Assembly: GCA_963761305.1 (NCBI GenBank)
Contig: CAVXGK010000002.1
Span: 1,568,001-1,632,000, forward strand
Direction of reading: 5' to 3'
DNA from: an uncultured Gemmatimonadaceae bacterium
GTDB taxonomy: Bacteria > Gemmatimonadota > Gemmatimonadetes > Gemmatimonadales > Gemmatimonadaceae
Length of the DNA stretch: 64,000 nt
Position numbers and translations under genes: made by a program. The notes beneath the pieces were generated by a model. It saw nothing but the letters and a program-made list of their open reading frames with translations. It was not told the origin of the DNA and made no database searches. Below, piece after piece: positions 15,328-28,165 of this stretch; within the stretch, counting starts at the first letter, position 1, and every line of letters begins with the position of its first letter.

Positions 15328-17721
15328 TCAGAACGCCGCCTTCAGTCGCAGTTGGAAGCTGCGCGGCCGCCCGACGGACGGACCGCTGAAGAATGCGCCC
15401 TTGAGCAAGTACGTCTTGTCGAAGACGTTGTCGACGTACAGCTCGGGCGTGAACTGCGTCCCGCCGACTCGCATCTGGTATCCCGCGGCCGCGTTGAAAA
15501 TGGTGCTCGGCGCAACGTGGATGCCCGAGTTGAAGTCGAAGAGGCCCTGGCCCAGGCTGCAGTTGCAGCTGCTCGGGTCGACGCCGTTGGTGAGACCGGA
15601 CCCGTAGATCGCCGTGCCGCTCAGAAAGAAGTTGCTCGGCGAATAGGTGGCGCTCGCCACGATGGAAAGACGCTGATCGTGATCGAGGTCGAAGAAACCG
15701 CTCGGCGGCGCGCTGGGGAAGAATCCTCCCGTGATGGTGCCGTACCCGTATGCATGGTTGAGCGCGGCGTTGATGTAGCCCGAGAACGGTCCGGGCGGCC
15801 GCACCTCGAGCACGCCCTCGATTCCCGTGATGTGCACGTGCTCGATGTTCACGTCGGTGACGATCGCCGAGCCGGGCACTGTGTTGTCGTCGATTCCGGG
15901 GCTGCTCTCCTTGTGGTACGCGGAGAGCTTGGTCACCAGGCCCGCCTCGGGGAAACGCTGGACGAGCCCCGCCTCGAAGAAGTTGTCGCGCTCAGGCAGC
16001 GTCGGGAGATCCGCCTCTCCGCCCTGGGAGACACTCGTGATGGTGCGGAGATCTTCGATGTTCGTCGGCATGAACAGGCGGCCGTAGTACAGATATGCGG
16101 TCGTCGTCGGCGACGGGAAGAAGTTGATGCGGAATCGCGGGCTCACCTGGCTCTGGACCGGCGTATTGGGCGCGGCGTGCGAGTCGTACCGGACGCCCGC
16201 GCGAAACTCCACCCACTCGGCCGGTGCGTAAGAGCCTTGGCCGTACACGCCGATGTCGTGGCCAGTGAGGTCGACGCTCGACTGCGGCCCGAAGCTCGTG
16301 GCGTTGAAGGTCGAGAAGTCTTCGTGCCCGCTGGTTAGCGACGACAGCGTGCCGAACTTGAATTCCGTCTCGTGTGCGGGGCGAAACGCGTAGTCGGCCT
16401 TGATCCCGTAGATGTTCGCCGCGCGGTTCTCGCGGATGTTGTAGAGGTTGGTGTCCGGGAAAAACTGGAACGTCGGATCGTCAAGCGGATCCGGGTTGTA
16501 GCGGAGAGACGCATGGCGGTAGAACAGGCCTCCGAAGAAATCGCCGGCCGTCTGGCCGTCGTCGTTCGGCTCACCCACCTGGTGGTGCCAACCCAGATTG
16601 ACGAAGCTGTTCCCGTCGTTCTGATGGTCGTTCTGAAACGCGCCGCCGCTCGAATCGTACGGAACGGCGAACTGCGTCGTCGAGAGATTCCCTTCGAGCG
16701 TGAACACATCGTGCGTGCTCGGCGAGTACTGGAGCTTGCCGAAGCCGTAGTAGTCGGTGCCGTCGTTGTGAAAGTTGCTGATGCGATTGGTGCTCGGGTC
16801 GATGACGATCGGCTCGAGGCGCATGTCGCTGAACTGGCGCGAGCCGGACAGGAAGAAGCCCCACGGCCCGCTGTTGCTGCTGATCGTGCCGGCTTCACCG
16901 TTCGAGCCGGTCGGCCCCGAGACGGTCGACCCGGAATAGCCACCGCCATATCCGCTGAAGCTTCCGTGGAATCCGCCCGACGGAATCTTCGTCGCGACGT
17001 TGACGATGGCCGATTGCCGGCCGCCGTACTCCGCGTCCCAGCCGCCCGTCTGGAAGTTGATTTGATTCACGACCTGCGGGTCGAACAATTCGTTGAGCGA
17101 TCCCGAGATGCCCGGCGGCACGGGGACGCCATCGATGTAGTAGGTGTATTCGGCGTGCTGTCCGCGAATGTGGACCTCGCCGGTCGGCGCACGGGCGGCG
17201 CCGGCGATCGACTCCTGAAGAATCTGTGACGTCGTCAACGTCGGCGCGCCATGGAAGTCGTTCTGTTTGAAGACCTGGTCGCCGCTGCGCGTGTCGACCG
17301 TGACGGCTGCCGGCGCGACGATCTGCACTGCCTCGAGGTTCAAGCCGACCGGTGCGAGCGCGAACTTGAATTGCTGGGTGGCCGTGGCCGTCTGCGCAAT
17401 GACCAGCGGTTGCGAGATCGCTCGGTAGCCGATGACGTGGACCGAGATCGAATACGTGCCCGCGCCGAGATGGTGAATCGTGAATCCACCGAACGTGTTC
17501 GTCGTGGTGTTCGCCACGACGGCGCCGCCCTGGTTGGCGACCGTGACCTCCGCCGACTCGATGGGCTGACCATTCGTGCTATCGGAGACCACACCAGTCA
17601 CATCGACGCTCGCGACGGCGGGCACTCCGCGGTGGATCGGGTCTCGTGCCGCGAACGCGAGTTGGCTCGGCACCAGCAACGCGCAGAACGCGAACGCGTG
17701 GAGGAACGGCGGTCGTATCAT
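15328..17721 (-). CDS. TonB-dependent receptor (paralogue 1)
   Basis: Signal peptide, carboxypeptidase-regulatory-like domain, plug HIRGQHAEYTYYIDGVP...TGGWDAEYG, C-terminal NVFDKTY...GRPRSFQLRLKAAF. Confidence 0.92.
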   Translation of the reverse strand: MIRPPFLHAFAFCALLVPSQLAFAARDPIHRGVPAVASVDVTGVVSDSTNGQPIESAEVTVANQGGAVVANTTTNTFGGFTIHHLGAGTYSISVHVIGYRAISQPLVIAQTATATQQFKFALAPVGLNLEAVQIVAPAAVTVDTRSGDQVFKQNDFHGAPTLTTSQILQESIAGAARAPTGEVHIRGQHAEYTYYIDGVPVPPGISGSLNELFDPQVVNQINFQTGGWDAEYGGRQSAIVNVATKIPSGGFHGSFSGYGGGYSGSTVSGPTGSNGEAGTISSNSGPWGFFLSGSRQFSDMRLEPIVIDPSTNRISNFHNDGTDYYGFGKLQYSPSTHDVFTLEGNLSTTQFAVPYDSSGGAFQNDHQNDGNSFVNLGWHHQVGEPNDDGQTAGDFFGGLFYRHASLRYNPDPLDDPTFQFFPDTNLYNIRENRAANIYGIKADYAFRPAHETEFKFGTLSSLTSGHEDFSTFNATSFGPQSSVDLTGHDIGVYGQGSYAPAEWVEFRAGVRYDSHAAPNTPVQSQVSPRFRINFFPSPTTTAYLYYGRLFMPTNIEDLRTITSVSQGGEADLPTLPERDNFFEAGLVQRFPEAGLVTKLSAYHKESSPGIDDNTVPGSAIVTDVNIEHVHITGIEGVLEVRPPGPFSGYINAALNHAYGYGTITGGFFPSAPPSGFFDLDHDQRLSIVASATYSPSNFFLSGTAIYGSGLTNGVDPSSCNCSLGQGLFDFNSGIHVAPSTIFNAAAGYQMRVGGTQFTPELYVDNVFDKTYLLKGAFFSGPSVGRPRSFQLRLKAAF

Positions 17722-17793
17722 CAGAAACTCCGTTTGACGGGATGCGCAGGATCGCCGGCGGCGTGAAGACGCTCGGCTGTTCGTGCTTCGCAT

Positions 17794-17883
17794 ACGCTAC
17801 GGATTCGCCGCGGCGAGCCGCGTTGGAATTCAACGTCCGGCTGCGTGGCTCCCATGAGCGGTCATCGTATGGCCACAACTGGT
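17794..17883 (-). promoter_or_regulatory. LytTR-type repeats plus -10 of TBDR1
   Basis: Minus strand ACCAGTTGTG (17883), ACCGCTCATG (17862), GCCGGACGTT (17841), 21-bp period; TAGCGT at 17799-17794. Confidence 0.6.
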
Positions 17884-17935
17884 CGCGGCAACGCCCGCTC
17901 GCTGATGGCGAGGTGCGTGCGAGGCAGCGCGGTGC

Positions 17936-20329
17936 TCAGAACGTCGCTTTGAGCTTGAGCTGGAGGCTGCGCGGCCGGCCGACCGACGGTCCGCTGAAGA
18001 AGGCGCCTTTCAGCAAGTACGTCTTGTTGAAGAGGTTCTCGACGTACAGCTGCGGCGTCATCACCGAGCCGTGCACGACGAACGAGTATCCTCCCGCCGC
18101 GTTGAAAATCGTGTTCGGCGAGACGTGAATGCCGCTGTTGAAATCGAATAGCCCGGTGCCGAACGAGCAGTGGCAGTCCGCGGGATCGACGCCGTTGGTG
18201 AGGCCCGAGCCGTAGATGATCATCCCGCTCAGGAACAAGCGCTTCGGCGAATACGTGCCGCTGGCGACGATCGATACCCGTTGGTCGTGATCGAGGTCGA
18301 ATGCGCCCGTCGGCGGCTGCGTCGGAAAGAAACCGCCGGTGATCGCCCCGAAGCCGTAGGCGTGGTTCAGCGCCGCGTTGACGTAGCTTGAGAAGGAGCC
18401 CTTGGGGTTCAGCTCGAGCACGGCCTCGATGCCGGTGATACGAATGTGCGCGATGTTCACATCGGTCACGATCGCCGAGCCGGGGATCGTGTTGTCGTCG
18501 ATGCCTGGATTGCTGTCCTTGTGGTACGCGGCGAGTTTCGCAACGACGCCTGCGTCGCGGGAATCGTTGGACGACGCCCGCCTCGTAGAAGTTGTCGCGT
18601 TCGGGCACCGTCGGTTGAGCGGCTTCGCCGCCCTGCGCGACGCTCGTAATCGTGCGCAGGTCCTCGATGTTCGTGGGCATGAACAGACGGCCGTAGTACA
18701 GATACGCCGTCGTCAACGCCGACGGATAGAAGTTGAGCCTGATACGTGGGCTCAACTGGCTCTCCACCGGCGTGTCGGGAGCCGCGTGCGTATCGTACCG
18801 CAGGCCGACTCGTAGCTCGATGTCGCTCGATGGGAGAGTACACCGTCTGGCCGTAGAAGCCGACGTCATACCCGTTCAGATCGACGTTGGACTGGGGGCC
18901 GAGCGAGACGGCGTTGAACGCCGAGAAATCTTCGTGCCCGGTCGTCACCGACGAGAGCGTGCCGATCTTGAACTCCGTCTCGCGTTCCGGGCGGAACGCG
19001 TAGTCGACCTTCAGGCCGTAGATGTTGGCGCTGCGATTCTCAGAGAGGTTGAAGAGCGTCGTATCCGGGAAAAACTGGAACGCCGGGTCGTCGTTGGGAT
19101 CGGGGTCGAATCGCAGCGACGCGCGCCGGTAGAAGAGGGCGCCGAACACGTCACTGCGCGCTCGTCCAGCCGAGTCGATGTCGCCGATCTGGCGGTGCCA
19201 CCCGAGGTTCAGAAAGCTGTTGGCGTCGTTCTGATGATCGTTCTGGAAAGCGCCGCCGGTCGAGTCGAAGGGGACCTCGAACTCGGTCGTCGACAGACTC
19301 CCTTCGAGCGTGAACACTTCGCGTGTGGTACGCGTGTATTGCAGTTTGCCGAAGCCGTAGAGGTCGGTGCCGGAGTTGTGAAAGTTGCTGATCAACCCGG
19401 TGCGCGGGTCGATGACGACCGGCTCGAGCCGCATGTCGCTGAACTGACGCGTGCCGGAGAGGAAGAATCCCCACGGCCCGCGGTTGTCGCTGACAGTCGC
19501 CGACTGGCCGTTCGATCCGGTCGGCCCAGCCACGCTCGATCCCGTGTACCCGCCGCCGTACGCGCTCGCGTCGCCTTGAAACCCGCCTGTCGGGATCTTG
19601 GTCGTGATGTTCACGACGGCGGCGATGCGCCCGCCGTATTCGGCGTCCCATCCGCCGGTCTGAAAGGTGATGTGGTCCACGACGTCCGGGTCGAACAGCT
19701 CGTTCAGCGACCCGGAGATGCCGGCAGGCACCGGCACGCCATCCACGTAGAACGTGTACTCGGCGTGCTGTCCGCGGATGTGTACCTCGCCCGTGGGCGC
19801 GCGGGCGGCACCCGCGATCGAGACCTGAATGATCTGCGACGTCGTCGCCGCCGGCGCGCTGTGAAACGTGTTCTGCCGGAAGATCTGGTCGCCGGTTCTC
19901 GAATCCAACGTCACGATGGGCGCATGTCGTGATCTGCATGGCCTGGAGATTCAGTCCGATCCGGGACAGCGCGACGTTGAGCACCTGCGCGGCGGTGACG
20001 GCGGACGCAATGATGAATGGCATCCTCTCGGCGCGGAATCCGATCATGCGGACGCTGAGCGAGTAGGGACCCGGCGCGAGGTTGTGAACGGTGAAGGCGC
20101 CGAACGTACTCGTCGTCGTCGTCGCGACGACGGCGCCGATGTAATTCGCGACGCTCACCTGCGCCCCGGAAACGGGTTGCCCTGTCGCGCTGTCGGTGAC
20201 GACGCCCGTCACGTCGGCGTTGGCCCATTCGCGCGCGGAGTTTGAGTAGCGAGCTGCGTGTGCGCTCTGGCAAGGAATCACGAGCACGCCCACGGCGAAC
20301 AATCGGCACCACAGTCCCAGCCCCGACAT
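17936..20329 (-). pseudogene. TonB-dependent receptor (paralogue 2), three frameshifts
   Basis: Four ORF fragments (19151-20329, 18466-19914, 17862-18869, 17936-18469) are collinear with TBDR1; shifts near 19920, 18830 and 18560. Confidence 0.88.
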
Positions 20330-20551: not shown

Positions 20552-20578
20552 GCTGCTGCAATGAAATGTTGCAGCAGC
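20552..20578. promoter_or_regulatory. Perfect palindrome, candidate metalloregulator operator
   Basis: GCTGCTGCAA-TGAAATG-TTGCAGCAGC (10-7-10). Confidence 0.5.
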
Positions 20579-20637
20579 GAACGCGAATGAGACTCCCAAC
20601 CTTGACGCGGCGCTGACGGGGCGAAGCTTCCATGTCG

Positions 20638-21285
20638 CAGCGACCATGGACCACTCGGCGTCGACCAGCGGACAGCCGACTCCGACCATGCGACCACCGC
20701 ACCCCGAACAGGAGACGGGCGATGCCGACCGAAGTGCGCGCCGATGTCGAACAGCGGCCACGCGACTTGGCGCTGTTGCCAGTCGGGTTCGAACGTCGGC
20801 GAGGAGAGCGGTCGGTCTTGTCGGTCGACCGCGACCGAGGATCCAGTCGACGTCGAACACCCGTCAGACCAGCCCGAACAGCGGCCACCTCACTCGACCG
20901 ACGCTTTCATCTCGCTCCGAACATCGGCCAGCCGAGCGGCGCATGGATCCAGCTCACTCCGACCATCGGCCAGGCGACCGGTCAGGTGGTTCCATGTCAC
21001 TCCGATCACCCGACCGGTGAGCGGTCGCGTGGATCCAGATCACTCCGACCGTCGGCCAGGCGAGCGGTCGGGTGGATCCATGCTGTTCCGACCATCGGCA
21101 AGGCGAGCGGTCGGCGGATACAGCCTACTCCGAACGTCGGCCAGGCAACTGCGAACGTTGCGCGCCCTGCTGAACCAAGGTTCCACGCCACTCCGAACGC
21201 CGATCGCATCACCGCCACCACGGATCACCGCACTCCGAACGCCGCCCGGCGAACGAACCACATCTCCCACCTCACTCGGCTGAGG
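20638..21285 (+). repeat. Degenerate tandem array, 42-43 bp unit with 21-bp sub-period
   Basis: (C/T)TCCGA-type anchor at 20915, 20957, 21000, 21043, 21086, 21128, 21191, 21233 and (degenerate) 21275. Consensus ~CACTCCGACCATCGGCCAGGCGAGCGGTCGGGTGGATCCA. Weaker CGA(A/C)C anchors extend back to ~20638. Confidence 0.85.
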
Positions 21286-21290
21286 CTTCC

Positions 21291-22046
21291 ATGAATCTCA
21301 GACAGGGCCGCACCCTACTGGCGTTCTATGCCGTCGATGTATTCCTCGACGCGTACCAGGCGCGCCTCCCCAAGACGACAGCGAGCGGCGCGCGCAAGCA
21401 ATTCGCCCGCACGCTCGCCGAGCTCGCCCTCCATGTTCAGACCCAGGCCGGCGCGCCGATCACGGCGCAGGGGCTCACCGCCGCGAAGGCGAAACAGCGC
21501 GCGGCGCTGGTTCGGGATTACCTGGCGCCGATCGCAAAAATCGCCAAACTCGAATCGGAAGCGCACCCGCCGCTCAAAGCACTCAAGCGCCTGCGCGGCG
21601 AACCGGCGTTGCAGAAACTGCTCGCCCACGCGGCCGGCATGGCCGTCATCGCTCAGGATTATCGCGAGGTCTTCGTCGCCGCCGGGATGCGGCCCACCTT
21701 CATCGAGGACATGACCGAGTCGATCGACGCGATCATGAACACCGCCACGGCGCGCACGGAGCGGGTCGGCGCGGGAAGCGGCGCGACCAAGGGACTCGAG
21801 ACAACGCTCGCCAAAGGCATGAAACAGAAACGGGTGCTCGATTCGTTCATTCGAACCGAGCTGAAGGACGATCTCACGCTGTTGGCGGCGTGGCGCACCG
21901 TTCAGCGGGTGGAAGGCCTGCCCGGCCGACGAAAGCGGCAAGATGATCGCAGTGCGTCGAGTGGGCCGCAGACCGCGTTGGCTGCGCCCGGCGATCTCCC
22001 GGTTCGCGAGCCGTCGCGGCTGCTGTCGGCGCCGGGGCAAGTCTGA
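21291..22046 (+). CDS. Hypothetical all-alpha-helical protein
   Basis: 251-aa ORF with amphipathic helical pattern (LVRDYLAPIAKIAK; FVAAGMRPTFIEDM; LLAAWRTVQRV); GAGG upstream; no catalytic motif recognised. Confidence 0.8.
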   Translation: MNLRQGRTLLAFYAVDVFLDAYQARLPKTTASGARKQFARTLAELALHVQTQAGAPITAQGLTAAKAKQRAALVRDYLAPIAKIAKLESEAHPPLKALKRLRGEPALQKLLAHAAGMAVIAQDYREVFVAAGMRPTFIEDMTESIDAIMNTATARTERVGAGSGATKGLETTLAKGMKQKRVLDSFIRTELKDDLTLLAAWRTVQRVEGLPGRRKRQDDRSASSGPQTALAAPGDLPVREPSRLLSAPGQV

Positions 22047-22172
22047 CACTCAATTGGATGCACTGCAACCATATAGGCGGCCTGGGAGTAACAACGAGTG
22101 GACGCCTCCGCCCGTAGACGGTTGTGGCCGTCTAGCGCCTCGACTCGTCAAGGAATAGGCTTCCTCTTCAGA

Positions 22173-22520
22173 ATGACCCCTCCGTACCGACCCAGACGCC
22201 GGCATCCGCTGACGCTGGTCATCGCCTTTTTGGCGTTGATCGCGCAGGTGGCTGTCGCGTTGTCTCCGTTGGCTGAAGGCCGTCGGCCGGGGATGGCGTC
22301 GCACGTCGAGAGCACCGGGGTGAGGCTTCACTATTCGCACGACGAAGCCACGTGCGCCGCGTGTCAGGCCCGTTCGATTCACGGCACGCCGCGAGCCGCC
22401 GACGTCGGGTTTCGTCCGTCGAGCGAGGTCGCGACCGCCGTCTGTACGGCGAGTGTTCGCGTCGCCACGGCCGACCGTTTTTCCCAAGACAACCCCCGCG
22501 CGCCACCCGGATTGATCTGA
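22173..22520 (+). CDS. DUF2946/CzcI-like small exported protein with CxxC and C-terminal RAPP motif
   Basis: Signal/TM segment, HYSHDEATCAACQ, ends NPRAPPGLI; directly upstream of the efflux operon. Confidence 0.75.
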   Translation: MTPPYRPRRRHPLTLVIAFLALIAQVAVALSPLAEGRRPGMASHVESTGVRLHYSHDEATCAACQARSIHGTPRAADVGFRPSSEVATAVCTASVRVATADRFSQDNPRAPPGLI

Positions 22521-22566: not shown

Positions 22567-23871
22567 ATGCGCCTTCCATTAGGAGTGTGTGCGCTGGCCG
22601 CAATTGCCAGCGTCACAGCCTCGCGTTGCATCGCACAAGCCGGTGTCACGCGGGGGAACCAAGACCGTTCGACCGACACGCTTCACCTGTCGCGCCTTCA
22701 GGCCATCGCCGCGGCGCTCACGGGCAACGCGCAAATCGACGCTGCCCGCCAGCAAGTCGGCGAGGCGGCCGCGCGCCGAGTCAGCGACATAGCGATCCCT
22801 GATCCGCAGTTCACGGCGGGCTACGATCAGTTGACCAGTCCGTTCGCGTTCAGCGGTGCGCCGTCGCGGCCGGTCGCGCTCAGTCTCACGGTCCCCTTCC
22901 CCGACAAGTTCCGGCTCAACAACAGGATCGGGCGCGCCGACATCGGCAATTCGGAAGCGAACCTGCGGCTGCAGCAGCAGACCATCGCGCTCCAGGCGTC
23001 GGCGACGTACGACTCGCTCCTCGTCGCGCAACTCCACCGGCAGAACCTGCTCGAGGCGCTGCAGCTCTCCCAGGATTTCCTGACGCGCACCAAGGCGCGC
23101 TTCGACGCGGGGACCGCCGCCAAGCTGGACGTGATTCAGGCGCAGGTCACGGTCGCGCAGGCGCAGAATGACCTGATCGGCAACGAGCGCGACCTTCTCG
23201 CCGCTCAGGCGTCGCTCAACCGCACGCTCGGCCGGATCGTCGGCGCGGCGATCATCACCACCGACTCGCTCGAGTTGCCGCCCGCGCTCCCCGACTCGAC
23301 GACGATCGTCCAGACGGCGCTCCAGAATCGCCAAGAGCTCAAGGCCCTCCAGCAACAGCAGCTCGGCCAGTCGGCGACGACGAAGCTCATCAAGGAATTC
23401 TGGATTCCCGACCTCACGTTCGGCGTCGCCAAGGACTACTCGGCCGTGGGGCAGGCGCTGTTCACCACTGGCATCTCCATGCCGCTGCCCGTGTTCTACT
23501 GGCAACATGCGCGCGGCGACATCGCGCTTTCGCAGCACACCGAGAACGAGCTCTCCGCCACGTATCGCGACACTCGCGCGCAGGTGACCCAGGACGTGCG
23601 CACGTCGTACGCCAATGCGAGCACCGCGATGAAACAAGTCACGTTCCTGCGCGACGAGCTGGTGCCCGCCGCGCGCGAAGCATACCGCGTCTCGTCCACG
23701 AGCTACGCCCTCGGCGGCTCGTCGGCGCTCGACGTGATCACCGCACGCACGGCACTCCTGACCGCAGAAGCACAACTCGCCGACGCACTCGCGGCGGCCA
23801 ACACCGCTCGCGCCGATCTCGATCGCGCGCTCGGACTCAGCGTTACCGCCACTGGGGCGACAATCAGATGA
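22567..23871 (+). CDS. TolC/CzcC family outer membrane efflux protein
   Basis: OEP repeats (RFDAGTAAKLDVIQAQV; YALGGSSALDVITART); ATGA-coupled to the MFP gene. Confidence 0.9.
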   Translation: MRLPLGVCALAAIASVTASRCIAQAGVTRGNQDRSTDTLHLSRLQAIAAALTGNAQIDAARQQVGEAAARRVSDIAIPDPQFTAGYDQLTSPFAFSGAPSRPVALSLTVPFPDKFRLNNRIGRADIGNSEANLRLQQQTIALQASATYDSLLVAQLHRQNLLEALQLSQDFLTRTKARFDAGTAAKLDVIQAQVTVAQAQNDLIGNERDLLAAQASLNRTLGRIVGAAIITTDSLELPPALPDSTTIVQTALQNRQELKALQQQQLGQSATTKLIKEFWIPDLTFGVAKDYSAVGQALFTTGISMPLPVFYWQHARGDIALSQHTENELSATYRDTRAQVTQDVRTSYANASTAMKQVTFLRDELVPAAREAYRVSSTSYALGGSSALDVITARTALLTAEAQLADALAAANTARADLDRALGLSVTATGATIR

Positions 23872-25025
23872 CTACTCGATCTCATCGCGGATCCATCTCC
23901 GCACTCGTGCTCGCCGGCGCTTTCGCCGCGGGCTGCTCCTCTCGCGACGCGTCGGGCACCCAGCTGGGCGACACAACACTCGGCCCCAAGCCGAGCAACC
24001 TGACCGTCACCGCCGACCAACGCCAGCGCATTCACCTGGTGACCGCCAAGACGGTCTCGTTCCGGCCGAACGTCGAAGCCACCGGCACGGTGGCCTTCAA
24101 CGGCGACCACTCGACTCAGGTGTTGTCACCGGTGTCGGGCCCGGCGGTCCGCGTGATCGCCGAGCCGGGACAAGTCGTGGAGAAGGGCGATGCGCTCGCC
24201 GACGTCTCGTCGCCCGACTTCGCGACGGCGGTGGCGACGTATCGCAAGGCGGAAACGGCCGTCCACAACGCCAAGCGCATCTACGTGCAGGACTCGGCGC
24301 TCTTCAAGAACGACGCGCTGGCGCGCACCGATCTCGAACAGGCACAGTCGGACCTCTCGTCGGCCGATGCCGACGTCGGCGCGGCGATCGAAGGTATGCG
24401 GTCGCTCGGCGTTGACGAGGCGCAGATCCAAGCGGTGCGCGACGGCAAGACGACGTCGATTGCGGCCGTCGTGCGCGCTCCGATCTCGGGCACCATTGTC
24501 GAGAAGCTCATCACGCCGGGGCAACTGCTCGCCGCCGGGACGACGCCGACGTACACCATCGCCGATCTCTCCACGGTGTGGGTGCTGGCCAACGTCTACG
24601 CCAACGATCTCGGCGACGTGTCGGTCGGCCAGAACGTCGACGTGATCGCCGACGACGCGGCGCAACCGCTGCCTGGGCGCGTCGACTACATCGCGTCGCT
24701 AGTCGATCCGGGAACGAAGGCCGTGCAGGTTCGCCTCGTCGTGCCGAACCGCCGCCAGGCGCTCCGGCGCGACATGTTCGTGCAGGTCCGGATCAAGTCG
24801 ACCGCCGAACACCGCGGGATCCTCGTCCCTGTGTCGTCGGTCCTGCGCGACGAACAGAACCTGCCGTTCGTGTTCGTCACGGCGCCGGGCGGCACGTTCC
24901 TGCGCCGCAAGATCATACTCGGCCGCCGGGTCGGCGATTCGTACGAGGCCGCGTCGGGGCTCGTCGACGGTGACCAGGTGGTGGCGGAGGGTTCGCTGTT
25001 CCTCGAGTTCGCGGAGACGCAGTGA
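23868..25025 (+). CDS. RND efflux periplasmic adaptor (CzcB-like), lipoprotein
   Basis: Lipobox AAGC; VRAPISGTIVE...G; TIADLSTVWVLANVY; VDPGTKAVQVR. Confidence 0.92.
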   Translation: MTTRSHRGSISALVLAGAFAAGCSSRDASGTQLGDTTLGPKPSNLTVTADQRQRIHLVTAKTVSFRPNVEATGTVAFNGDHSTQVLSPVSGPAVRVIAEPGQVVEKGDALADVSSPDFATAVATYRKAETAVHNAKRIYVQDSALFKNDALARTDLEQAQSDLSSADADVGAAIEGMRSLGVDEAQIQAVRDGKTTSIAAVVRAPISGTIVEKLITPGQLLAAGTTPTYTIADLSTVWVLANVYANDLGDVSVGQNVDVIADDAAQPLPGRVDYIASLVDPGTKAVQVRLVVPNRRQALRRDMFVQVRIKSTAEHRGILVPVSSVLRDEQNLPFVFVTAPGGTFLRRKIILGRRVGDSYEAASGLVDGDQVVAEGSLFLEFAETQ

Positions 25026-28000
25026 GCGACCCGAACCACTCCGCGGCCGAGCACTCGTCGGCCGGCGGCGCCGCGTCGAGACACGGGCCGATCCAACGGC
25101 TGGTCGAGGCGTCGGTCGGGCAGCCGCTCATCATCCTGCTCATCACGCTCGGCATCATTGGGCTCGGTTTTTTCTCATTGAAGCGGCTGCCCGTCGACGC
25201 GTATCCCGACGTCTCGCCGACGGCCGTCGAGTTGACGGCGCAGTGGCCCGGACACGCGACGGAAGAGGTCGAGCGGCTGGTGACGGTGCCGATCGAAACG
25301 GCGTTGAATGGGCTGCCGAATCTCGTCGTGATGCGATCGGTGTCGCTCTACGGATTGTCGAGCGTTCGCGTCACGTTCTCAGAGGGCACGGATCTCTATT
25401 TCGCGCGGCAACAGGTGTTCGAGCGACTCGGCGATGCGGCGGTCCCGGCGGGCGTCAGCCCGGGCATGGAAGCGGCGTCGTCGCCGTCGGGACTCGTCTA
25501 CCGCTACGTCATCAAGAGCAGCGATCGATCGGCGATGGAGCTGCACGTCCTCGAGGACTGGGTGCTCGACAAGGCGTATCGCGCCGTGCCGGGCGTCGCC
25601 GACGTCGCGTCGCTCGGCGGCGAGACGATGCAGTACCAGGTGCTCGTCGATCCGACGAAGCTGGCCGGAGCGGGGCTCGCCGTCAGCGACGTGGCGAACG
25701 CTCTCAGTGCCAACAACAGCAACGCCGGCGGCGGGTTCTATTCGGAAGGGGCGCAGTTCATCTACGTCCGGGGACTGGGACGCGTCGTCACGCTGGAAGA
25801 CATCGGGAACATCGTGATCGCCGTGAAGAACGGCATTCCGATTCTCATCAAGGACGTGGCGAAGGTGGAGATCGGCCACGCGCCGCGGCTCGGCCAGTTC
25901 GGGTTCAACAAGACCGACGACGCGGTGGAAGGCACCATCCTGATGCTCACCGGCGAGCAGGCGCAGGTCGTTCTCAAGCGTGTCGAGGCGAAGACCCAGG
26001 AGCTGAACGATCACGTGCTGCCGAAGGACGTGAAAGTCGTTCCGTTCTATGACCGGAGCGATCTCGTCTCGCTGACGACGCGCACCGTAGCCGACAACCT
26101 GATTCGCGGCATTCTGCTCGTCGTCGTCGTCCTGATCTTCTTCTTGTACGACATCCGGTCGGGGTTGATCGTCGCGGTCACCGTGCCGCTCGCGCTGCTC
26201 ATCGCGTTCATATGTCTCGACCTGCGCAACATTCCGGCGAACTTGCTGTCGATCGGCGCGATCGACTTCGGCATTCTCGTAGACGGCGCGGTCGTGATGG
26301 TGGAGAACGTCTACCGTCAGCTCGCCGAGCGTCACGGCACCGAGTATCGCTTTCGCGATGTGTTGTTCGACGCGGCGTCGGAAGTGAATCGCCCGATCGT
26401 CTACGCGATCGCCGTCATCGTGGCCGGATTCCTTCCGATCTACGCGTTGACGGGACCGTCGGCCAAGCTGTTCCGGCCGATGGCCGACACGACGATCTAC
26501 GCGTTGCTCGGCTCGCTGGTGCTCACGTTGACGGTCATTCCCGTACTCTGTTCCATCGTGCTGCGCCGCGGAGTACGCGAGCGCGTCAATCCGGTGTTCG
26601 AGTGGATCAAGCGCGGGTACGCGCGCGGACTGGATTGGTGCCTCGGGCATCGCGCATCCACCGTGGTCGTGACGCTGGCGCTCTTCGTCGTATCGGCGTT
26701 GATCGCCTACACGCGCGGCGGCGAATTCATGCCCAAGCTCGACGAAGGCGCGATCTGGGTGCGCGCGACGATGCCGTACACGATCTCGTTCGAGGCATCC
26801 TCGGCGATCGTGCCGCAGGTTCGGTCCATTCTGGCGAGCTTCCCGGAAGTCACCGACGTCGCGTCGGAGCACGGGCGCGACGACGGCGGCACCGACCCGA
26901 CCGGATTCTTCAACGCCGAGTTCTACGTCGGACTGAAACCGTATCGGCAGTGGAACGGCGACTTCAAGTCGAAAGACGCGTTGATCGCCGCGATCGACAA
27001 AAAGCTGTCCGTGTTTCCAGGCATCACCTTCAACTACACGCAGCCGGCGGAAGATGCGGTCGATGAGGCCCTCACCGGCTTGAAGTCGTCGCTCGACGTG
27101 AAAGTGTTCGGCACCGACCTCAACATTCTCGAGGACAAGGGCCGGCAAATCAAAAGCATCATCCAGGGGATCCACGGCATCACGGACGTGACGCTGGTGC
27201 AGGAGTTGGGTCAGCCGAGCCTCACCATCACCGTCGACCGCGCGAAGATCGCGCGCTACGGCCTGAGCTCCGACGCGGTGAACGGGCTCATCGAGGCAGC
27301 GGTCGGCGGCGTCGCCACGACGCAGGTCGTCCAGGGCGAGCGCACGTTCGATCTCGTCGTGCGGCTCCAGGAGCAATACCGCGGCACGCCGGAGGAGATC
27401 GGCAACATCCTGCTCGCCACTCCCGACGGCAATCAGATCCCGCTCCGTGAGGTCGCCGACGTGCAGATCGGCAACGGCGCGGCGTTCATCTATCGGCAGG
27501 ACAACTCGCGCTACATCGGCGTGCAGTACTCGGTCGAAGGACGCGATCTCGCCAGCGCCGTCGCCGAGGCGCGCGCCGCGGTCGACAAGAAGGTGAAGCT
27601 GCCGATCGGATACAGCGTCCGGTGGGGCGGCGAGTTCGAGGAGTACACGGCGTCGCGCGCGCAGATGAACGTCGTGCTCCCGGTGACGATCATTCTGATT
27701 TTCTCGCTCCTGTTCTTTCTCTACAAGAATCTGAAGTTTCCGCTCATCACGGTCGTCGGCGTCATTCTCTCGGCGCCGCTCGGCGGATTGGTGGCGATGC
27801 TCATCACGAACACGCCGTTCTCGGTGTCGTCGATGATCGGGTTCCTCGCCCTGTTCGGCGTGTCGGTGCAGACGGCCGTCGTCTACATCTCCTACGCCAA
27901 CGAGCTGCGGCTCGGCGGCCACGGCATCGAGCAGGCGACGCGCGAAGCCGCGCTGTTGCGGTTGCGGCCGATCATGATGACGGCGCTCGTCGCGGCGCTC

Positions 28001-28165
28001 GGCTTGTTGCCGGCCGCGCTGTCCACCGGCGTCGGATCGGATACGCAGAAGCCGTTCGCGCTGGTGATCGTCGGGGGACTCTTCTCGCGTCTTCTGATCA
28101 GCGTCTTCCTCATGCCCGTGCTCTACGTGATGTTCGCGCGGAGCGACGATCACCTGGAGGTCTGA
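25022..28165 (+). CDS. czcA: Heavy-metal efflux RND permease, CzcA/CusA family (CzcA-type)
   Basis: [64 protein letters not shown]. Confidence 0.9.
   Translation: [1047 protein letters not shown]

Follow-up and report, generated by a model that had tools for sequence, protein, structure and literature searches.

Leader DNA phased at about 21 nt precedes a family of genes for predicted helical-rod proteins in Gemmatimonadota

Our analysis showed that a leader of ~650 nt, directly upstream of a 251-aa gene in the window (the whole 64,000-nt stretch of Gemmatimonadaceae DNA studied here), carries a short directional word, CGA(A/C)C, on a lattice with a basic step of ~21.3 nt, and that upstream DNA of differing sequence is likewise phased at 21 nt at 72 of 98 loci of the same gene family in Gemmatimonadota (z of at least 3 over the 800 nt upstream). 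Comparison of these loci supports the two-part module, array plus protein, that a preliminary description of this DNA had proposed. The window locus is real, ordinary as one of many copies and unusual as a system. We suggest that the protein may polymerise on its own two-helical-turn lattice and that copies of the leader may spread as extra sites, a reading to which we give not far short of an even chance.

Features of the locus and its flanks

20600..22063, + strand: whole inserted unit, left end approximate (20565-20605), delimited by comparison with five close relatives
20603..20634, + strand: promoter-like head, of putative function, with two TGACG words (20603 and 20614, 11 nt apart) and TTCCATG (20628)
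20632..21294, + strand: 220-aa open frame across the leader (from the ORF list), its stop overlapping the ATG of the gene; probably no conserved protein
20635..21285, + strand: non-coding leader in which CGA(A/C)C sites, separated by spacers that vary, are phased on a ~21.3-nt lattice; delimited by site phase and by a gene-less copy on C1 that matches from 20635
20908..21146, + strand: core of homogenised 42/43-nt units, internally self-complementary and containing TGGATCCA palindromes (TRF, folding z)
21291..22046, + strand: 251-aa gene, with a ~205-aa basic, predicted all-alpha core and a low-complexity tail
15328..20329, - strand: left flank, outside the module, two tandem TonB-dependent-receptor-like genes (CarboxypepD_reg domains; weak TonB model match)
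22567..28165, + strand: right flank, outside the module, genes for an outer-membrane efflux protein (PF02321), an RND adaptor and a CusA/CzcA-family heavy-metal efflux permease (TIGR01730 and TIGR00914 above cut-off)

The lattice and its conservation

The TCCGA anchors of the array, counted from 20916, are spaced by 42, 43, 43, 43, 42, 63, 42 and 42 nt, and the array ends, after a last, degenerate anchor at 21276, ~6 nt 5' of the ATG at 21291, as had been described. The top score (231-260) among the 56 TRF rows for the window belongs to 20908-21146, with a period of 43, 5.6 copies and 74% matches. The CGA(A/C)C anchors reported further upstream reach back to 20641; 19 of the 25 sites (20641-21254) fall within phase 0-0.12 of a 21.33-nt lattice, the best period is 21.2, with a score matched by none of 300 random placements, and CGAAC occurs 11 times on the + strand of the leader vs once on the - strand. 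The basic step of the leader is ~21.3 nt instead of the 42 bp first taken as the period, the 42/43-nt units being a locally homogenised part of it, and the idea of a period of two or four helical turns fits this non-integer step. The 43-bp units, which had been read as variants of a 42-bp unit, are real, but 43 nt is the homogenised unit and not the variant, since a gene-less array at C1:1445565 holds 9.7 copies of period 43. An assembly error as the origin of the 43-nt units was rejected on the basis of that copy and of an independent run, in which a contig of 116 nt covers 20966-21081 gap-free. In related strains the core 20908-21146 is a net 42 and 170 nt shorter.

The palindromes noted between units are found as three exact copies of TGGATCCA (20944, 21030 and 21073), and the inner hairpin noted in unit 3 as TCACC/GGTGA at 21006/21016. 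The core is self-complementary, as claimed, but only modestly: the folding z is -2.3 on the + strand and -2.7 on the - strand, and -1.0 for the whole leader. A conserved RNA structure was rejected on this modest folding and on the lack of covariation (a term of +3.94, unfavourable, over four close leaders, with a double change in 7 of 156 pairs). The promoter-like head does not match the sigma-70 consensus. To its left, near the left junction, lies a short inverted repeat, CTGCTGCAA ... TTGCAGCAG (20569-20577 / 20553-20561 region).

Nine gene-bearing leaders belong to the window clade (clade labels come from a protein tree based on a quick search, which served just for that); they lie in different neighbourhoods and the more distant ones precede proteins of 45-59% identity. 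All nine share the head, TGACG-N6-TGACG followed by a TACCATG-like word, ~600-720 nt before the ATG. CGAAC, strand-biased in the clade (125 vs 24), is the top phased 5-mer in eight of the nine and tied in the ninth. CCGAAC spacings fall on 21n+0..3 in 102 of 111 cases and drift through 21/22, 42/43, 64, 85/86, 107/108 and 128/129, that is by ~21.4 nt (clade period 21.2-21.5), which neither codons nor a fixed unit would yield. Spacers, hairpins and TGGATCCA are absent from the orthologues, where the spacers are unalignable and TRF detects almost no tandem repeat; CGAAC and its phase remain. Identity within the motif is 0.92-0.97 vs 0.70-0.86 elsewhere in the leaders, figures that are partly circular because the motifs anchor the alignments. 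Slightly over half of the indels of at least 10 nt (29/57) measure 21/22, 42/43, 86 or 126 nt and keep the phase. The leaders diverge ~3 times as much as the gene, with no codon bias. Sharing of a motif within clades may be plain ancestry.

Arrays and genes across Gemmatimonadota

The window genome (5.2 Mb, 66% GC, 93%-complete) has 13 full-length genes of the family, and 11 of them are preceded by a tandem repeat of period 21, 42, 43 or 63, each with its own unit. Among 61 relatives, 27 were found to have the family, the number of matches in a genome ranging from 0 to 24 and many copies being broken; across the phylum it was found in 48 of 201 genomes, which all belong to two families. One family match, at C2:2958745, was dropped as spurious because a second search did not recover it. 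The flanks of the homologues were examined for 21/42-bp autocorrelation, as the preliminary description had recommended, in 98 of 100 distinct loci, two having been dropped for less than 800 nt of upstream DNA. The upstream 5-mers gave a sharp comb at multiples of 21, with counts of 2770, 2443, 1523, 1230, 966 and 862 at lags 21, 42, 63, 84, 105 and 126 vs ~150 as background, and no 3-nt comb, in which genes and downstream DNA differ. When 104 leaders were tested, 62 scored, 61 of these with a best period of 20.4-21.5, compared with 1 of 95 gene controls scoring; the signal is strongest 250-450 nt before the start codon. With periodic arrays at 72 of 98 loci, a count that is descriptive only because the loci share kinship, the objection that homologues might lack arrays does not hold against the module.

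At the other 26 of the 98 loci there is no clear phase, and these include one whole clade with intact genes, so the gene can last without a lattice; intact genes behind unphased leaders (L104, L106, L108-L110, L112, L114 and L115) form a natural negative control. Near-identical proteins stand behind different repeat units at L005, L008 and L009, so any specificity would have to be loose.

Some loci are larger. A related ECF-type sigma gene lies upstream at 21 of the 94 loci with enough upstream DNA, 20 times divergently, and at 10-11 of 95 loci, for example L196:4032-4747 (+), the helical gene is followed by a pair of small hydrophobic genes that belong to no known family; neither the sigma gene nor the small downstream genes were found at loci of the window clade. 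The ECF-type sigma-70 gene is seen at L196:1548-2183 (-), at L008:184-993 (-) and at 19 more loci, and all four copies in the window genome adjoin family genes. At L012, L026, L027 and L086 one subfamily is inserted just 5' of a gene that we take to be padR-like. Genome-wide, the next commonest TRF periods after 21 are 8 and 16 (CCGTCCAC-type; 157 and 89 of 1044 rows), and one such period 8/16 array abuts the 3' end of a family copy at C2:1923062.

The 251-aa protein and its family

The length of the ORF (21291-22046, 251 aa) is exactly as first described, and its all-alpha character was borne out in a structure model built from 135 sequences (pLDDT 92.4), in which two helices of ~55 residues each (33-88 and 137-190) give the protein the predicted shape of a helical rod. 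The family core is basic (median pI 10.2, net charge +8), with conserved arginines and an invariant W201. Strong purifying selection on the gene follows from the close homologues, in which third codon positions account for 54 of 58 substitutions. At silent sites there is no avoidance of G (5608 G vs 5314 C).

No library family fits the protein. A profile from 17 close relatives drew 2,678 related clusters at 50% identity (E<=0.001); the close homologues include two Gemmatimonadaceae records, and the Atlas neighbours are unnamed clusters, with few placed members, from Acidobacteriota, Gemmatimonadota and Bacteroidota. Searches of Pfam and NCBIfam (135 members each), PHROGs and PDB sequences returned no usable family match, PADLOC gave one weak match in 2 of 17 sequences and nothing usable, and neither plasmid and phage records (one paralogue as query) nor viral contigs gave a match. 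The fold search that had been called for found only generic helical bundles: Foldseek returned nothing at E<=0.001, the best structural match, the McpS sensor domain (Z 9.7, rmsd 4.9, 179 aligned), is in the range of such bundles, and no recognisable DNA-binding domain is present in the predicted fold. PQLLE (NF052641) is touched by 15 of 135 members at E<=0.1 (best 2.9e-5), the window protein not among them, and its best match in the genome, at 19.2 bits, stays below the curated cut-off of 80 bits. Clusters bearing DUF6261 (PF19775) are listed by the Atlas at 0.86-0.87; this family (cut-off 27 bits) is matched by nothing in the genome at E<=0.01 and is absent from the families listed for the 135 members. 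To judge from sequence, PQLLE and DUF6261, both uncharacterised and of similar length, may be distant relatives at most.

Gene-less copies of the leader

The window genome holds gene-less leader copies in at least 14 places; they are multi-copy and intergenic, and 10 of 14 end between -160 and +15 of the ATG. The copy of the window leader at C1:1445454-1446115 covers the leader from 20635 to a point immediately before the ATG. Genomes G017 and G024 contain CGAAC leaders, and the window-clade gene was found in neither; three independent CGAAC-type gene-less copies there lack the TGACG head and two of them end after 4-5 codons. Gene-less copies of other clades retain 860-1050 nt of upstream DNA, including promoter-like parts. 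Leader-only matches, obtained with two leader queries, came only from genomes that also have family genes.

Full units have ragged 5' ends and no recombinase travels with them. Neither Cas1 nor a Y1 transposase (PF01797) was found in the 93%-complete genome, consistent with the initial view that the array has no cas genes and no recognisable transposase. The genome encodes one RVT_1 reverse transcriptase, presumably a group II intron enzyme from its appearance. A general target-site duplication was rejected, being clear at 1 of 15 sites and marginal at 2. The clear case is at G000:C1:1445350-1446290 (L015, L193), where the 3' end of the neighbouring gene is duplicated, in degenerate form, over ~105 nt beside the gene-less copy of the window leader (score 83 vs a null maximum of 38; the sole case in 15 sites). 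At L189, a 25-nt hairpin is duplicated on both sides.

What might read the lattice

The period of ~21, non-integer in the clade, the free spacers, the directional word and a basic protein, predicted to be a rod of matching length, together point to polymerisation. The basic rod would bind evenly spaced sites on the double-stranded leader DNA and polymerise along one face of it, one step per two helical turns; this step would match the rod, two ~55-residue helices of ~80 angstrom vs ~72 angstrom for 21.3 bp, lengths computed with textbook values for the rises. By coating its leader the protein may control its own promoter, and the gene-less leader copies could act in trans as extra sites. Such a filament on DNA would agree with the tie between lattice and gene family, with the conservation of motif and phase among free spacers, with purifying selection on the gene, and with the patchy copy number, the empty site described below and the gene-less copies. 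An unnamed polymerising protein has been proposed for repeats of this kind, in the part of the article available to us (Subirana and Messeguer, 2021; PMC8161180). Against it, a strand-biased motif confined to a presumed transcribed leader would fit RNA equally well, and the fold has generic bundles as its matches and no recognisable DNA-binding domain. The unphased 26 of 98 loci, the different units behind near-identical proteins and the leaders of G017 and G024 without the clade gene also count against a filament, as do 3 of 14 clade leaders with no significant period and 5 of 14 that peak near 14.3 (43/3). More broadly, the pair may be a new and widespread type of selfish or chromosome-structuring module, in which an enzyme-less helical rod forms filaments on a two-turn lattice of a 5-base word and leaders seed dozens of gene-less arrays, a proposal that we put forward tentatively, as possible rather than probable.

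Instead, some host protein might recognise the lattice, or a two-turn mutational process such as slippage or homogenisation might maintain it, the gene being an ancestral neighbour with another role. The sequence of the units does change quickly, even where the genes behind them are nearly identical, in one clade the gene occurs with no lattice, no period is more frequent than 21 among the TRF rows of the genome (166 of 1044) and only 11 of 65 phased regions are near an intact gene; 20-21-nt repeats are, moreover, found in many phyla, according to the portion consulted of PMC8161180. Yet the motif and phase outlive unalignable spacers, which is beyond slippage alone, at least 14 gene-less arrays are recognisable leader copies, and the link between array and gene spans at least three genera and two families, and we consider this explanation unlikely.

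That the protein coats its own leader RNA, at ~21 nt per subunit in the manner of a nucleocapsid, with gene-less leaders retro-copied by a reverse transcriptase encoded elsewhere, appears to us rather improbable. The one-strand motif begins right after the promoter-like head, the C1 copy runs from the presumed start at 20635 to just before the ATG, the G017 and G024 copies are headless, most copies end near the start codon and an RVT_1 enzyme is available in the genome. However, copies of other clades keep their upstream DNA with its promoter-like parts, of 15 sites just one has a flanking duplication that rises clear of the null, identical end points would follow from selective loss of the gene, and a non-integer period would suit the double helix better than a fixed RNA footprint.

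Translation of the leader, as ribosome traffic, translational coupling or a repeat peptide, is very unlikely. The open frame that crosses the leader (20632-21294), which had gone unmentioned in the preliminary description, overlaps the start codon, the leader has been annotated as a repeat-like N-terminal extension of some database proteins, and in the clade 6 of 9 leaders have a stop-free + frame (3 of these 6 near-identical; the remaining 3 of 9 have none) and stop codons are somewhat scarce (40 vs ~74 in shuffles), a shortage that speaks against a purely non-coding view. But an open frame arises by chance in the shuffled window leader with a frequency of 0.31, the frame differs between orthologues, a 21.4 period carries the motif through every frame, the longest open frame across the family is 145 aa vs 148 in shuffles, and substitutions by position mod 3 are 74/46/63 in the leader vs 1/3/54 in the gene. 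The leader is probably non-coding, and the idea that the array is a conserved 14-aa repeat CDS is contradicted by the lack of codon periodicity and of third-position bias.

Processing of the transcript into ~42-nt hairpin RNAs acting with the protein, also envisaged originally, is the least credible explanation: the core units are self-complementary (z -2.3) and phased inverted matches occur in 23 of 98 leaders (against a null that ignores repeats), but the - strand folds as well as the + strand, the whole leader folds poorly, the covariation term is unfavourable, orthologues have neither the hairpin units nor TGGATCCA, Rfam gives no CRISPR or other match (two chance matches fell below the gathering score) and the module contains no nuclease.

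Comparison with known systems

The available text of Subirana and Messeguer (2021; PMC8161180) describes bacterial tandem repeats of 20-21 nt that are non-coding, constant in size and variable in sequence, with several families of sequence in each genome, a short word conserved in every repeat and a length noted to equal two DNA turns. The arrays studied here resemble them in fixed length (20.4-21.5 in 61 of 62 scoring leaders), differing sequence, short word and non-coding character, and differ in that they precede one gene family, where that text names no linked gene, and in that many gene-less arrays trace to family leaders. In the excerpt seen of PMC4596501, the BrickBuilt MITE of Porphyromonas gingivalis is likewise an intergenic element present in multiple copies, built of ~23-nt tandem repeats plus a leader and a tail, and has promoter activity; its termini are inverted repeats that match IS elements, there are some target duplications and it carries no gene, whereas the present module has ragged ends and its parent form carries a conserved gene. 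The gene-less leader copies are, like MITEs, multi-copy, intergenic and non-autonomous, and no terminal inverted pair was found among the 25 longest inverted repeats. The array is unlike CRISPR-Cas, with head-to-tail degenerate units, no Cas1 and no Rfam CRISPR match, and unlike REP/RAYT (BIME) systems, with no PF01797 match in the genome and a predicted all-alpha protein next to it.

The sopC/SopB pair of the F plasmid also combines 43-bp direct repeats, with an internal inverted repeat, and an adjacent gene for the binding protein, but in the part seen of PMC3177203 its sites are a conserved 16-bp inverted repeat, and here there is a non-palindromic 5-mer at half that spacing. Unlike ParABS or sopABC, the module is chromosomal, multi-copy and without a ParB family or fold match (none in Pfam or NCBIfam among 135 members, none among PDB sequences), and it has no palindromic site per repeat, the orthologues keeping only the non-palindromic CGAAC. 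No partition NTPase gene was found between 14 and 29 kb of the window and none recurs within 1.5 kb of the 100 loci; the centromere-like role once considered thus finds no support, as a partner ATPase gene recurs at none of them. Iterons are direct repeats that recur every ~21-22 bp on the same face of the helix, next to a gene whose self-repressing product binds them; they are conserved sites of 17-22 bp, recognised by winged-helix proteins and carried on plasmids or phages. The module differs from iteron-Rep pairs in its predicted long helical bundle, modelled without a beta strand, in its 5-mer sites and in the absence of a Rep family match among its members. By analogy, it would work most like iteron-Rep or sopC-SopB pairs, yet it lacks distinguishing traits of both.

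No report pairing 21-nt arrays with such a gene was found in the literature searched, which included few subscription journals. Constant-length 20-21-nt repeats are a published puzzle, for which a polymerising protein is only guessed at in the pages available of PMC8161180. The present results connect such arrays with a large unnamed protein family (2,678 clusters) and trace gene-less arrays back to the leaders of that family, so that the puzzle becomes a direct question of binding with defined phase mutants. If binding is true, it would represent a new mode of nucleic-acid recognition, in which a helical rod reads spacing and a 5-base word, and perhaps also a novel means by which a gene unit lacking its own recombinase can spread; if the module is selfish or chromosome-structuring, the constant-length 21-nt satellites of bacteria would have in it both their missing partner and their origin.

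Insertion site and flanking genes

The match of five close relatives to the window begins only at 22064. In G024 a TonB gene abuts the equivalent point, with neither array nor gene, and thus represents an empty site; the other four have different genes there. Together these indicate that ~20600-22063 is an insertion at a variable site, and the module looks, as first suggested, independently acquired at this place. No flanking duplication surrounds the unit at the window site, very short ones being beyond the reach of the test. The 'metal island' said to be interrupted stands as regards the CusA/CzcA efflux genes on the right, but only one of the five close relatives has TonB beside efflux genes.

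A small CxxC gene at 22170-22520 (+), with no family match above cut-off and presumably DUF2946-like, precedes the efflux operon and is kept in relatives. In G011, which has no family match, that operon is preceded by an unrelated 24/25-nt array (L133 ~1220-1460 +; TRF 721-957). On the left, the TonB-receptor-like gene at 17862-20329 (-) is split over several frames, as a pseudogene or by assembly error, and is a tandem paralogue of the intact gene at 15328-17793.
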